Of a DNA stretch of 64,000 nucleotides, positions 36,405 through 53,330 are shown piece after piece (position 1 is the stretch's first letter; every line of letters starts with the position of its first letter). This DNA comes from Gemmatimonadales bacterium (GTDB lineage Bacteria > Gemmatimonadota > Gemmatimonadetes > Gemmatimonadales > GWC2-71-9): the NCBI GenBank assembly GCA_039934355.1, contig JBDTMI010000008.1, positions 3,012-67,011 on the forward strand, written 5' to 3'. Both the position numbers and the translations under genes were made by a program. The notes below the pieces were generated by a model, which was not told where the DNA came from, searched no databases, and saw nothing but the letters and a program-made list of their open reading frames with translations.

Positions 36405-36420
36405 ATGTAAACGTTTACAT
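36405..36420. promoter_or_regulatory. LacI-family operator 1: perfect 16-bp palindrome ATGTAAACGTTTACAT
   Basis: Read directly. The palindrome has a central CG and matches the TGnAAnCGnTTnCA-type LacI/GalR operator consensus. It lies between the divergent AP-family and lacI-family genes. Confidence 0.7.
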
Positions 36421-36467
36421 ACCGCCACAGGCCGTGTCGGCTCCCGCTGGACTGTTGTGGACCGAAA

Positions 36468-36483
36468 ATGTAAACGTTTACAT
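36468..36483. promoter_or_regulatory. LacI-family operator 2: identical 16-bp palindrome
   Basis: This is an exact second copy. The shared stretch is the 20-nt gaaaatgtaaacgtttacat. The two centres are 63 bp apart. Confidence 0.7.
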
Positions 36484-36595
36484 GCCGACAGAGCCTCGTC
36501 GGCCCCCACTCGAGTACCCACAGTATCCCTGGCGGAATCGGCATTCCGTCCCGGGCGCACCTCGGAGCACCGAGGGCGGGCGCCTCTCAGCTGCC

Positions 36596-37609
36596 ATGAT
36601 GATCACGATCAAGGACGTCGCCCGTCAGGCCGGGGTCTCCGTCGCTACCGTCTCTCGGGTCTTCAACGACATCGATAACGTCCGCCCGCACACCCGCGAG
36701 CGGGTGCAGGCCGTCGCCCTGGAGCTCGGCTACAGCCCGCATGGAACCGCCCGCAGCCTGATCACAAGCCGGACCCACACTCTGGGCATGCTGTTGCCGG
36801 ACCTCTATGGCGAATTCTTCTCCGAAGTCATCCGCGGGGTGGACCAGGCGGCCCAACGGGAGGGCTTTCACCTGCTGATCTCCAGCGCGCGCGCCGAAGG
36901 TCCCTCCCTGGAAGCGGCCCTGCGTTCCATGCGCGGCCGGGTGGACGGACTCATCGTGATGTCGCCCGATCTCGATGCCCTCGCTTCGCGCCGCAGCCTG
37001 CCCCATGGCTTCCCGGTCGTCTTGCTCAACTGTCCGCCCAGCGACGCCGGCCATGACAGCATCGGCATCGCCAACTACGAAGGCGCGCTCGCCATGACTC
37101 GGCACCTGGCGGGTCAGGGGCACACCCGGATTGCGATGATCAAGGGCGCGGAGGGGAATTTCGACGCGGCGGAGCGGTTGCGCGGGTACCGCGCGGTGGT
37201 GCGGGAGCGCAACCTCGATGCCCACCCCACCCTGGAGCTCGCCGGTGATTTCAGTGAAGACGGGGGACACGCCGCGGCCCTGCGCCTCCTCGCCCTGCAT
37301 CCCCGCCCGACCGCTGTCTTTGCCGCCAATGACGGCATGGCCGTCGGCGCGCTCAGCGCCTTCCGCGAGGCCGGCCTCCGGGTGCCCCAGGATATCGCCC
37401 TCGGCGGCTTTGACGACATCCCGCTGGCCCGATACGTAGAGCCGGCCCTGACCAGTGTCCACGTCCCCATCAATGTGCTCGGTGAACACGCCACCGGCTG
37501 CCTGTTCGCACGCCTGCGTGCGGTCGAGCCCATGGAGTCCCGTCGCGAAGTGCTGGCCACGACACTCGTCGTGCGGCGCTCCTGCGGCGCGCAGGGTGGA
37601 CCGGGCTGA
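36596..37609 (+). CDS. LacI-family transcriptional regulator
   Basis: The HTH is MITIKDVARQAGVSVATVSRVFN, followed by a periplasmic-binding-protein-like sugar-binding core. Confidence 0.9.
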   Translation: MMITIKDVARQAGVSVATVSRVFNDIDNVRPHTRERVQAVALELGYSPHGTARSLITSRTHTLGMLLPDLYGEFFSEVIRGVDQAAQREGFHLLISSARAEGPSLEAALRSMRGRVDGLIVMSPDLDALASRRSLPHGFPVVLLNCPPSDAGHDSIGIANYEGALAMTRHLAGQGHTRIAMIKGAEGNFDAAERLRGYRAVVRERNLDAHPTLELAGDFSEDGGHAAALRLLALHPRPTAVFAANDGMAVGALSAFREAGLRVPQDIALGGFDDIPLARYVEPALTSVHVPINVLGEHATGCLFARLRAVEPMESRREVLATTLVVRRSCGAQGGPG

Positions 37610-51300: not shown

Positions 51301-52195
51301 GCGGTATCGCGATTATCTCCGCCAGCTCCACGTGGCCCTGAATGACGGCGGCTGGGACGGCGGCTGGTATCGCCGCGGCTACTACGACAACGGCACCCCC
51401 CTCGGCTCGGCGAAGAGCGACGAGTGCCGGATCGACGCCATCGCGCAGGCCTGGGCGGTGCTCTCCGGGGTGGCGCCAGCGGAGCGTGCGACCCAGGCGC
51501 TGGACGCGCTGGAGCAGCACCTGGTCTCGGAGTCCGATGGGATCATCCGGCTGCTGACCCCGCCCTTCGACCAGACGCCTGAGGATCCGGGCTACATCAA
51601 GGGCTACCTCCCCGGCGTGCGGGAAAACGGCGGGCAATACACTCATGGCGCGCTCTGGGCCGTGCAGGCGCTGGCCGAAGCGGGTCGGGGCGACCGCGCC
51701 GCCGCATTGCTCACCATGCTCTCGCCCGTCACCCACGGCGCGACACCCGCCGCCGCGGATCGATACCAGGTGGAACCGTATGTCATCGCGGCGGATGTCT
51801 ACGGCGTGGCACCGCATGTCGGACGGGGCGGCTGGACCTGGTACACCGGCTCGGCGGGGTGGATGTTCCGCGTCGCGGTGGAATCGGTGCTGGGGATCGC
51901 CCTTGAGGGAGGGAACTTCATCGTGGTACGACCAGCCTTGCCACTCGCGTGGCCCGGCTACTCCTTTACCTCCCGGCTGCCCGATGGCAGGACGACGCTC
52001 ACGCTGACGGTGGAACGCGCGGCGGCCACAGACCAGTCAGCGACCAATGGTACGCTGGACGGCCAGGCGCTCGCCGTTGTCGATGGCGCGGTCCGCATCC
52101 CACTTCCCGATGACGGCGCAACCCACACCGCGGCAATTCGTTTTGGCGCAGGCGCACGTGTTACCTATCACCAGCGACCAGCCGCTGAATGCTGA
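48365..52195 (+). CDS. GH94-family glycoside phosphorylase, 1,2-beta-oligoglucan phosphorylase / cyclic-glucan-synthase C-terminal-like
   Basis: [33 protein letters not shown] is repeated at [11 protein letters not shown]...EAFYLRDE. The catalytic-domain motifs [30 protein letters not shown] and [11 protein letters not shown] are present. The GTG start overlaps the upstream TGA. Confidence 0.8.
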
Positions 52196-52225
52196 ACGCT
52201 CAATGCTGAACGCTGAACGCTGACT
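52184..52225. repeat. Heptanucleotide repeat (GCTGAAY family, 6 units)
   Basis: The array reads gctgaat gctgaac gctcaat gctgaac gctgaac gctgact. It contains the GH94 stop codon (52193-52195). Confidence 0.9.
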
Positions 52226-52235
52226 GGAGTCCCCA

Positions 52236-53330
52236 ATGGCCAGTGTAAGCTTGACCGACATCCGCAAAACCTTCGAAGACCGCGGGAAAACCCACGTGGC
52301 GGTCCGCGACATCTCGCTCGAGATCGCGGATGGCGAATTCCTCGTGCTCGTCGGACCATCGGGGTGCGGGAAGAGCACAACGCTCCGCATGATCGCCGGG
52401 CTGGAGCCGATCACGAGTGGCACACTCCGGATTGGCGACAAGCTGGTCAACGACATCGCGGCCCGCGACCGCGACATCGCGATGGTCTTCCAGAACTACG
52501 CCCTCTACCCCCACATGACGGTGCGTCAGAACCTGGCGTTTGCGCTGACCTTGCGAAAGCTGGGTAAAGCGGAGATTGCCTCGCGCGTCGCCGAAGCGGC
52601 TCAGCTGCTGGGGCTCGAGGAATTGCTGGAGCGCCGGCCGCGGCAGCTCTCCGGGGGCCAGCGGCAACGAGTGGCACTTGGTCGGGCCATCGTGCGGCAA
52701 CCGCAGGTGTTTCTCTTCGACGAGCCGCTGTCCAACCTCGACGCCAAGCTGCGCATCCAGATGCGACGTGAGCTGGCGGCCCTGCGTCGTCGGCTCGGGA
52801 CCACGGCAGTGTATGTGACCCATGACCAGGTGGAAGCGATGACTCTCGGCGATCGCATCGTGGTCATGCGCGATGGCGCCGTCGAACAGATCGCCGCACC
52901 GCTGGAGCTGTATCGGAGGCCGGCCACGGCATTTGTTGCCACGTTCATAGGCAGCCCGCCGATGAATGTCGTCGCCGGCGCCGTCTCCAGTCCCGACGGC
53001 AGGCAGTTCATCACGCCGGATGGATCGTTCCGCCTCCCGCTGGAGGGCGGAGCTCCGGCCATCATGAAGCCGGGCCACAAGGTGCTGCTCGGCATCCGCC
53101 CGGAACAAATTGTCATTGGCTCAAGCACCACCGGTGGCGCCACCGCGCTGGTGGAAGTGATTGAGCCGCTGGGCAACGAGACGATGGTGGGGCTGCGGGT
53201 GGGGACGAACTTTCTCACGGCACGGCTGGACGGAATGGCGACGGCGGCGATTGGCAGCACCGTCGGCATCACCTTGCCTGCCGAGGCTCTGCACTGGTTT
53301 GATGGCGACACGGAACGCCGGCTGGGGTAA
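52236..53330 (+). CDS. Sugar ABC transporter ATP-binding protein (MalK/MsmK/UgpC-like)
   Basis: The Walker A is GPSGCGKST, the signature LSGGQRQRVALGRA and the Walker B VFLFDEPLSNLD, with a C-terminal TOBE-like domain. Confidence 0.9.
   Translation: MASVSLTDIRKTFEDRGKTHVAVRDISLEIADGEFLVLVGPSGCGKSTTLRMIAGLEPITSGTLRIGDKLVNDIAARDRDIAMVFQNYALYPHMTVRQNLAFALTLRKLGKAEIASRVAEAAQLLGLEELLERRPRQLSGGQRQRVALGRAIVRQPQVFLFDEPLSNLDAKLRIQMRRELAALRRRLGTTAVYVTHDQVEAMTLGDRIVVMRDGAVEQIAAPLELYRRPATAFVATFIGSPPMNVVAGAVSSPDGRQFITPDGSFRLPLEGGAPAIMKPGHKVLLGIRPEQIVIGSSTTGGATALVEVIEPLGNETMVGLRVGTNFLTARLDGMATAAIGSTVGITLPAEALHWFDGDTERRLG

Follow-up and report, generated by a model that had tools for sequence, protein, structure and literature searches.

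A LacI-controlled operon predicted to utilize beta-1,2-glucans in a Gemmatimonadales bacterium, with a large candidate periplasmic enzyme

Introduction

Which glycan is utilized through a nine-gene operon of a Gemmatimonadales bacterium, and does the operon encode all that its utilization would require? The genes lie at 36596-53330, all on the plus strand, in the 64,000-nt stretch of DNA that was analyzed (here called the window; G+C approximately 66%). Open reading frame (ORF) listing together with Pfam and NCBIfam domain scans gave the order LacI-family repressor, TonB-dependent receptor (TBDR), glycoside hydrolase family 144 (GH144) protein, solute-binding protein (SBP), ATP-binding cassette (ABC) permease A, permease B, a large protein called P7 here, a GH94 protein, and an ABC ATPase. 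A first-pass annotation of this DNA had described nine co-directional genes with overlaps of 1-4 nt and had read them as a beta-1,2-glucan utilization system. All nine are present, with the overlaps at four junctions, and the domain scans agree with its naming of LacI, an Oar-type TBDR, an SBP, two permeases, and an MsmK-like ATPase.

In cyclic as well as linear form, beta-1,2-glucans serve Rhizobiaceae, Brucella, Xanthomonas, and many other bacteria in symbiosis, virulence, and osmoprotection. Little is known of how they are consumed in soil and rhizosphere. The operon appears to be an inducible one for scavenging linear or cyclic beta-1,2-glucans, a reading to which we give a probability of about 0.8. 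The assignment is made because there are three independent homology anchors, the GH144 protein, the SBP (which groups with Lin1841 of Listeria), and the GH94 protein, and in this respect the first-pass annotation was largely right. The idea of such a pathway is already published. What is new is P7, which is uncharacterized, and the stand-alone form of a GH94 protein of the Cgs type (Cgs being the synthase of cyclic beta-1,2-glucan).

Endoglucanase and Outer-Membrane Receptor

The third gene (40741-42174, 477 residues) encodes a predicted GH144 endo-beta-1,2-glucanase. The protein contains the PF10091 "Glycoamylase" (alpha/alpha)6 domain at 269.3 bits, for which the curated cut-off is 27. It matches PDB entry 8XUL, the enzyme XcSGL (XCC2207) of Xanthomonas campestris, with 56.5% identity over 444 residues (E = 1.8e-175), and CpSGL (5GZH), the founding GH144 enzyme, at 9e-46. 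XcSGL was shown in 2025 to be active on beta-1,2-glucan only among 13 polysaccharides, and was inactive on carboxymethyl (CM)-cellulose, lichenan, laminarin, curdlan, pustulan, and barley glucan (PMC12102758). The clan-defining residues E239, F286, and Y367 in XcSGL numbering (PMC12102758) are kept in the window protein as E220 (GYNEAM), F265 (PLFGH), and Y346 (FFTYAARG). The 8XUL chain is indexed 14 lower in this alignment than its residue numbers, and it carries the E239Q mutation at a position where the window protein has Glu. The N-terminus has a signal peptide and a possible lipobox (...LLLTLAC/SANH). The first-pass annotation had called the protein GH144-like, and no other family displaced this call. 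Its description as an exported GH144 endo-beta-1,2-glucanase, maybe a lipoprotein, appears to be largely right.

The receptor is encoded just upstream (37650-40667, 1005 residues). PF13620 (CarboxypepD_reg), PF07715 (Plug), and PF25183 (OMP_b-brl_4) indicate a carboxypeptidase-regulatory-like domain, a plug, and a barrel of the 22-strand type, an arrangement of the Oar type. The signal peptide ends in AQA/QT. The SusC/SusD pairing of Bacteroidota-type polysaccharide utilization loci was not found, as the receptor is of the Oar type and no SusD domain is present in the locus proteins or the scanned neighbors.

Binding Protein and ABC Importer

The SBP (42246-43520; SBP_bac_1) has two solved relatives that stand apart from all others. 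The best match is PDB 3UOR (2e-125; approximately 50% identity, judged by eye from the alignment), which the search output names merely as an ABC-transporter sugar-binding protein and which we take to be from Xanthomonas. The second is Lin1841 (5YSB), matched at 3.5e-67 over 386 residues, and all binders after these two are at 1e-33 or worse (the next, unrelated one at 1.3e-33). Lin1841 is the binder of Sop3-5 in Listeria innocua (PMC12369401). The window protein has the SBP_bac_1 (cluster-B) fold and Lin1841 is its nearest characterized relative, so that its prediction as a sophoro-oligosaccharide-type binder seems largely right. It is probably a lipoprotein (...LLAALSC/APAPS). Its start is ambiguous and could be 42153, 42246, or 42264.

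The remaining parts of an importer are also present. Permease A (43517-44401; MalF/UgpA type) and permease B (44401-45222; MalG/UgpE type) each contain BPD_transp_1. The ATPase at the end of the operon (52236-53330, 364 residues) is of the MalK/UgpC/MsmK type with ABC_tran, OB_MalK, and TOBE_2 domains, and it passes NCBIfam NF008653 for the UgpC subfamily with 494.7 bits against a cut-off of 432.

GH94 Phosphorylase

The third anchor is the GH94 protein (48365-52195, 1276 residues). PF06165 matches it at 472 bits in two stretches, which correspond to two supersandwich domains, and PF17167 matches at 386 bits. The match to Cgs (8RF0/8RF9) reaches 894 bits (E = 1.8e-267), with residues 31-372 matching Cgs 1543-1888 and residues 423-1222 matching Cgs 1996-2790. 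The matched stretch of Cgs is the whole C-terminal phosphorylase module, with the layout GP1, insert, GP2, and GP3 (Sedzicki et al., 2024), although the insert is aligned only in part. The catalytic Asp, D938 (GDWND), aligns with D490 of cellobiose phosphorylase (CBP) and with D2528 of Cgs, which has been named as the catalytic residue (PMC11842490). The catalytic domain is 55% identical to that of Cgs, and the position of CBP Q712 is Ala in both. Equivalents of CBP R351, W488, H666, and T731, residues with roles in CBP that reportedly come from work of Hidaka et al., are kept, as the RSA, YTH, and YTGS motifs align.

The GH94 protein thus appears to be a stand-alone phosphorylase module of the Cgs C-terminal type. 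Both supersandwich subdomains and the catalytic barrel are matched over nearly the full 1276 residues. Unlike Cgs, the window protein is stand-alone and soluble, without GT84 or GH189 domains or membrane helices. Its equivalent of the Rossmann-like insert is approximately 50 residues shorter, as seen from an alignment gap, and it lies in a catabolic operon instead of a synthase context. There are hundreds of stand-alone Cgs-type GH94 proteins of 1150-1300 residues under mixed automatic names, and no characterized one was found in the literature. Such a module could help to make beta-1,2-oligosaccharides. The public call of the identical protein (P0121, 1264 residues) starts at a TTG at 48401, 12 codons after the GTG at 48365 that overlaps the P7 stop codon.

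The first-pass annotation had likened the GH94 protein to Cgs and to SOGP, the phosphorylase of 1,2-beta-oligoglucan, on account of a duplicated N-terminal module. The duplicated module and the match to Cgs hold. The likeness to SOGP does not, and a label of Listeria/Lachnoclostridium SOGP type was dropped, as the solved enzyme LpSOGP of L. phytofermentans is not among the 23 PDB sequences matched by the GH94 protein (phmmer, E <= 10). For this reason the specificity is assigned from the Cgs domain and the context. The protein may act in an SOGP-like manner yet lie outside the SOGP branch.

The locus could also target another glycan, such as cellodextrins, chito-oligosaccharides, or laminarin, with the GH94 protein being a cellobiose, chitobiose, or cellodextrin phosphorylase. 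Close homologs of the GH94 protein are publicly named "cellobiose phosphorylase" and "N,N'-diacetylchitobiose phosphorylase", and P7 carries CBM11-like and CBM32 domains, carbohydrate-binding module (CBM) families that are known to bind other glycans. The public names, however, are automatic annotations. The GH94 protein reaches only approximately 270 bits against cellobiose and chitobiose phosphorylases, and the Q712 replacement is common to it and Cgs. The SBP is closest to a sophoro-oligosaccharide binder, and XcSGL is inactive on the six other glucans named above. Another target glycan is thus highly improbable, and the cellodextrin or chitobiose specificity that the first-pass annotation had named as an alternative is not borne out. 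Beta-1,2-glucan is the preferred substrate in what follows.

P7, a Large Candidate Enzyme

P7 (45219-48368, 1049 residues) is the main lead of the locus and may define a new CAZy family. CBM32 (F5_F8_type_C) is its only domain past the Pfam and NCBIfam cut-offs, and in many homologs an N-terminal CBM11-like domain is also matched by Pfam. The six-hairpin part gives sub-threshold matches to GH78, GH15, and GDE models. Bac_rhamnosid6H reaches 21.8 bits, below its cut-off of 24.5, and GH15 and GDE_C are marginal in 7-8 of 28 homologs. A phmmer search and a profile search of the PDB found no significant solved relative beyond the CBMs.

An AlphaFold2 (AF2) model built with 28 homologs has a mean predicted local distance difference test (pLDDT) of 86 and a predicted template modeling score (pTM) of 0.82. 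It consists of a CBM11-like beta-sandwich (residues 22-175), CBM32 (residues 187-304), a beta-supersandwich (residues 339-550), an (alpha/alpha)6 barrel (residues 565-941), and a C-terminal beta-sandwich (residues 942-1045). Foldseek matched the model to dextran dextrinase, GH94 phosphorylases, the exo-arabinanase ExoMA2, GH15 glucodextranase and glucoamylase, GH116, and other proteins, at 8-14% identity and with no standout. Placement of P7 in a known six-hairpin family (GH15, GH65, GH78, GH94, GH116, and others) was tried and rejected, as Pfam, NCBIfam, the PDB phmmer and profile searches, and Foldseek gave the CBMs and fold-level likeness only. The literature, including recent GH144 papers, yielded no description of the family.

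The P7 family appears to be exported, because homologs from Duganella, Lysobacter, Xanthomonas, Hyphomicrobium, and several uncultured lineages have canonical Sec signal peptides. These end directly before a conserved LDDFE motif. In Gemmatimonadales, P7 has a short hydrophobic N-terminus with no basic residues. A cytoplasmic P7 was considered on this ground and rejected as the main reading, given the canonical signal peptides at the same place in five other lineages. The first-pass annotation had recognized the CBM32 and the (alpha/alpha)6 barrel, and both stand. A reading of the protein as a cytoplasmic accessory does not, since P7 is predicted to be exported, belongs to no known family, and is a conserved core partner of GH144.

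Conserved residues were taken from 78 homologous sequences with 43-79% identity to the window P7. The barrel contains a GH15-like motif, Y622-x-R624-x-W626-I-R628-D629, and ten invariant acids, D629, E677, D679, E746, D758, D820, D822, E872, E909, and D923. For an exported protein that combines CBMs, a six-hairpin fold, and many invariant acids, the simplest reading is a periplasmic glycosidase. That P7 is a periplasmic hydrolase is somewhat better than an even bet, and that it represents a new GH family whose substrates derive from beta-1,2-glucan falls slightly short of one.

P7 could instead be a phosphorylase or transglycosylase related to GH94, or a non-catalytic protein that captures glucan with its two CBMs. 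Profile-profile comparison with the GH94 family (hhalign) gave a probability of 90% and an E value of 1.5e-6 over 542 columns, and among the best matches by structure are GH94 phosphorylases and dextran dextrinase, a transglycosylase. This profile link is real but remote, and it does not decide between hydrolase and phosphorylase. In the same alignment the catalytic DWND loop of GH94 falls in a gap of P7, and the phosphate-binding His of GH94 aligns with Pro870, which adjoins the invariant Glu872. Export to the periplasm would be unusual for a phosphorylase, and the GH15-like motif and the invariant acids argue for an active glycosidase. We consider it doubtful, then, that P7 is something other than a hydrolase, and the periplasmic hydrolase is kept as the preferred reading.

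The step carried out by P7 is possibly one that is beyond GH144 and beta-glucosidases. Candidate linkages are the alpha-1,6 closure of cyclized beta-1,2-glucans and the beta-1,6 branches of glucans of the enterobacterial type. GH15 takes in glucodextranase, which acts on alpha-1,6 linkages. Cleavage of the alpha-1,6 linkage in alpha-1,6-cyclized beta-1,2-glucans is attractive because of the GH15-like motif and the structural likeness to alpha-1,6-acting enzymes, but as a specific proposal it is a long shot. Digestion of alpha-1,6-cyclized glucans with CpSGL and a beta-glucosidase is said in a preprint to leave a "non-degradable glucopentaose" (bioRxiv 10.1101/2025.04.21.649730).

Regulator and Operators

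The first gene (36596-37609, 337 residues, MMITIKDV...) encodes a repressor with the LacI helix-turn-helix (HTH; Pfam, 1.6e-18) and Peripla_BP_3 (3e-39). Two exact copies of the perfect 14-bp LacI-type palindrome TGTAAACGTTTACA precede it. The first predicted operator is at 36406-36419 and the second at 36469-36482, which puts it 63 bp past the first and leaves 114 bp to the start of LacI. These are the only two matches in the window, even when 2 mismatches are allowed, and no match was found in 100 shuffles. The first-pass annotation had begun the locus at 36405, which marks the beginning of the first palindrome; the real start of LacI is at approximately 36596.

In 27 of 35 related loci, including those of Lysobacter, Duganella, Acidobacteriota, and Krumholzibacteriia, a version of the palindrome with at most 2 mismatches lies no more than 400 bp upstream of the LacI gene. 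Relatives can have extra copies before the receptor or GH144 gene and in the spacer between divergent GH1 and ATPase genes. The combination of an HTH, a periplasmic-binding-protein-like effector domain, and a palindrome with a central CG is that expected for a LacI-controlled operon. It appears that TGTAAACGTTTACA is the conserved operator of this regulon, and a defined LacI operator could be used to report beta-1,2-glucan sensing. The repressor is below all NCBIfam equivalog cut-offs, so NCBIfam assigns no effector to it. A perfect TTGACA hexamer (36387-36392), which was seen by eye and in itself is no sign of function, lies 13 nt upstream of the first operator. A terminator scan of the locus gave nothing above the shuffled background.

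The short divergent GH1/ATPase spacers of relatives contain the palindrome TGAAAACGGTTACA and its variants, in loci L002 (14972), L009 (5001), L012 (14842), and L041 (14555), with further ones in L064 (10742), L079 (14933), and L082 (16542). They suggest a second regulated promoter pair that was lost from the window along with GH1.

Related Loci and the Missing Beta-Glucosidase

Relatives of P7 are present at no fewer than 572 places in species-representative genomes, with approximately 3,100 proteins matched. The loci compared were the best 80 of these at least 572 places and two loci from metagenome-derived assemblies, and synteny was counted in the P7-centered loci with enough flank (46 or 44). 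The common order is LacI, TBDR, GH144, SBP, permease, permease, P7, often GH94, often GH1 on the minus strand, and ATPase. It was seen in Gemmatimonadota, Acidobacteriota/Thermoanaerobaculia, Eisenbacteria, Krumholzibacteriota, Xanthomonadales (Lysobacter, Luteimonas, and X. melonis), Duganella, and Hyphomicrobium. The same gene order thus recurs in dozens of genomes of several phyla and for this reason is far from chance. A locus type this widespread suggests a common, undescribed turnover route for beta-1,2-glucans.

GH144 is present in 38 of 46 loci, the SBP and permeases in 39, LacI in 34, and a TBDR homolog at the same position in 23. P7 appears to be the constant partner of GH144 and the importer in the P7-centered loci, which span at least six phyla. 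GH1 was found in 33 of 44 loci and GH94 in 22 of 44, and the two seem to serve as alternative or extra modules in the cytoplasm. Unusually, the window has GH94 but no GH1.

In the nearest relative, locus L045 (P7 79% identical), GH94 and the ATPase are separated by a GH1 gene of 1.35 kb, which is on the minus strand (14704-16053). In the window this position is a 40-nt spacer with three GCTGAACGC repeats (52191-52220), which looks like the scar of a GH1 deletion. No GH1 was found in the 64 kb by tblastn with two GH1 proteins of related loci as queries (E <= 1). A Pfam scan of the nine locus proteins and 20 flanking or more distant ORFs, a part of the ORFs in the window, found no SusD, GH1, or GH3, as the first-pass annotation had also stated. 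The window locus therefore seems to have lost the GH1 beta-glucosidase that is typical of its relatives.

Other arrangements occur among the relatives. In Competibacteraceae and other Gammaproteobacteria (L060 at 9851-16700, L080, and L054 at 9707-18356), a P7 homolog is followed by a Cgs-type GH94, and there is no GH144, SBP, or permease nearby. In L054 a DDE transposase lies between the two genes and the GH94 protein has only 808 residues. It is puzzling that an exported enzyme should be paired here with a phosphorylase of the cytoplasm when no dedicated importer goes with them. Three loci of Eisenbacteria and unclassified bacteria (L021, L022, and L061) have a second, more divergent GH144 gene upstream of LacI, whose product is 48-50% identical to that of the window, and their opposite strand encodes a distant GH94 with 37-38% identity. 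Their layout recalls the two GH144 genes of Ignavibacterium album.

Proposed Pathway

The operon can be arranged into a pathway as follows. When no inducer is present, LacI would hold the entire operon off by binding the two TGTAAACGTTTACA palindromes before its own gene. The inducer may be sophorose or a short sophoro-oligosaccharide. The Oar-type TBDR would bring soluble beta-1,2-glucan or its large oligomers across the outer membrane. Cyclic beta-1,2-glucans are small and soluble, with a degree of polymerization (DP) of 17-25. Uptake ahead of hydrolysis is plausible, as no enzyme of the locus is clearly extracellular. In the periplasm, GH144 would cut the chains endolytically to products of approximately DP 3-5, the sizes given by characterized relatives. 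P7, with its two CBMs, could then perform a second periplasmic step, which is most likely hydrolysis beyond that of GH144, either exo-attack or removal of a linkage or branch that is not beta-1,2.

The Lin1841-type SBP, the two permeases, and the MalK-type ATPase would import the oligomers of approximately DP 3-5. In the cytoplasm, the GH94 protein and phosphate would take glucose units from the non-reducing end as glucose 1-phosphate until sophorose is left, if its linkage specificity is as expected. Kobayashi et al. (2022, PMC8861115) predicted that the homologous IALB_1177 acts in this way, by phosphorolysis from the non-reducing end to sophorose. Sophorose would be split by a beta-glucosidase encoded elsewhere, which is needed because the GH1 of most related loci has been lost here.

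Several points weigh against this pathway. The support consists of homology, synteny, and predicted structure, and this is so for the Gemmatimonadota relatives as well. With no beta-glucosidase at the locus, the pathway is not closed on paper. The TBDR has no solved relative by sequence, so its substrate cannot be read from its sequence. The GH94 protein did not match LpSOGP, which represents SOGP, the only type of stand-alone beta-1,2-oligoglucan phosphorylase to have been characterized. The lipoboxes assigned to GH144 and the SBP are non-canonical. The N-terminus of the window P7, MIAGLVALTLTAVAPP..., has no positively charged n-region, which makes export less certain here than in the proteobacterial homologs. 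A scan of the locus for a sigma-70 consensus promoter gave no match.

The locus might also recycle or remodel the beta-1,2-glucans of the cell's own periplasm, with GH144 and P7 trimming them and the importer and GH94 recovering glucose. Both depolymerizing enzymes are predicted to be periplasmic, the Competibacteraceae have the P7-GH94 module without any transporter, and the same cluster is present in Xanthomonas and relatives (L081). X. campestris is known to make an alpha-1,6-cyclized beta-1,2-glucan (PMC11228985). However, the TBDR is the second gene of the operon, under the same operators, and would be sensible only if material is taken up from outside. Repression by LacI and induction by the substrate are typical of loci for catabolic scavenging, and neither a Cgs nor an OpgH synthase was found in the window ORFs that were scanned. 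Recycling is an unlikely role, and scavenging of external beta-1,2-glucan is preferred.

Comparison with Known Systems

The closest case is the IALB_1177-1187 cluster of Ignavibacterium album, for which TonB uptake, periplasmic GH144, ABC import by a Lin1841 homolog, and a GH94 of the Cgs C-terminal type were proposed (Kobayashi et al., 2022, PMC8861115). The published model likewise includes no beta-glucosidase in the cluster (PMC8861115). In I. album there are two GH144 genes and one for a GH35 beta-1,2-glucosyltransferase, and no P7-type protein is mentioned, whereas the window has one GH144, P7, and LacI with defined operators. The first-pass annotation had considered a complete pathway in a diderm to be the novelty of the locus. 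This can no longer be claimed, as the same idea is in Kobayashi et al. (2022) and the pathway is incomplete on paper without the GH1 that most relatives have.

Listeria innocua possesses a GH94 SOGP (Lin1839), a GH3 (Lin1840), and an importer (Lin1841-1843). A Lin1841-type SBP with an ABC importer and cytoplasmic phosphorolysis by GH94 are common to both systems. Listeria, however, is monoderm and has no outer-membrane step, and it has no endoglucanase. The window GH94 is from a different branch, and GH3 is absent from the window locus. The logic of beta-1,2-glucan pathways is also known from the SGL clusters of Bacteroidota.

Xanthomonas offers a further comparison. Besides XCC2207 of X. campestris, which encodes the homolog of the window GH144, there is the Xanthomonas-type binder 3UOR at approximately 50% identity, and the Oar-like receptor XCC2208 bears the locus tag adjoining XCC2207. 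A listing from 2007 describes XCC2208 as a TBDR that lacks a canonical plug. In X. melonis, Lysobacter, and Luteimonas the order LacI, (TBDR), GH144, SBP, two permeases, and P7 is as in the window; in X. melonis no receptor gene separates LacI from GH144, and GH94 is missing within 10 kb. XcSGL is the only characterized member of the Xanthomonas cluster (PMC12102758). A literature search on XCC2202-2206, XCC2208, and 3UOR found no paper on the cluster as a system or on its P7 homolog. For plant pathogens with the cluster, such as Xanthomonas, the question is whether their own virulence glucan is consumed or remodeled.

The locus also resembles the carbohydrate utilization containing TBDR (CUT) loci of Xanthomonas and aquatic bacteria, which likewise have a TBDR, an inner-membrane transporter, degradative enzymes, and a regulator, with no SusD (Blanvillain et al., 2007, PMC1790865). 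The CUT category is a general one, and a beta-1,2-glucan substrate and P7 are outside the original description (PMC1790865).

Operon Boundaries and Genomic Setting

The four overlapping junctions, read from the sequence, are GTGA at SBP/permease A, where the GTG start of permease A overlaps the SBP stop; TGATG at permease A/B, where the ATG shares one base with the preceding stop; ATGA at permease B/P7; and GTGA at P7/GH94. They probably provide translational coupling. The remaining intergenic gaps in the operon are 40-73 nt. Both flanks are occupied by unrelated genes on the minus strand, glutamine synthetase III and a phosphodiesterase-like protein upstream and a sulfite-oxidase-type protein downstream. 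Because these genes are unrelated and on the opposite strand, the nine-gene unit is a discrete one.

A glycogen/alpha-glucan cluster was identified by Pfam approximately 17-30 kb upstream of the operon (5800-19926). It contains a gene for a glycosyltransferase family 5 (GT5) glycogen synthase (5800-7392) and genes for three GH57 proteins: a branching enzyme with BE_C (7400-9118), a protein with DUF3536 (9188-11326), and one of the 4-alpha-glucanotransferase type (17974-19926). Glucose 1-phosphate made by the GH94 protein could supply this cluster, and their closeness may also be coincidental.

Two sensor kinases with no evident tie to the operon are encoded just upstream of the glutamine synthetase III gene. 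The one at 28830-31034 (minus strand) is a histidine kinase of PAS-GAF-PAS layout, and the one at 31218-32864 (plus strand) is a hybrid histidine kinase that includes a receiver domain. Downstream, the sulfite-oxidase-type molybdoenzyme (54493-55764) and an aldehyde dehydrogenase (56685-58172) are present. These are accompanied by a resistance-nodulation-division (RND) efflux pair on the minus strand, which consists of a pump of the AcrB type (58185-61286) and a membrane-fusion protein of the HlyD type (61283-62917).

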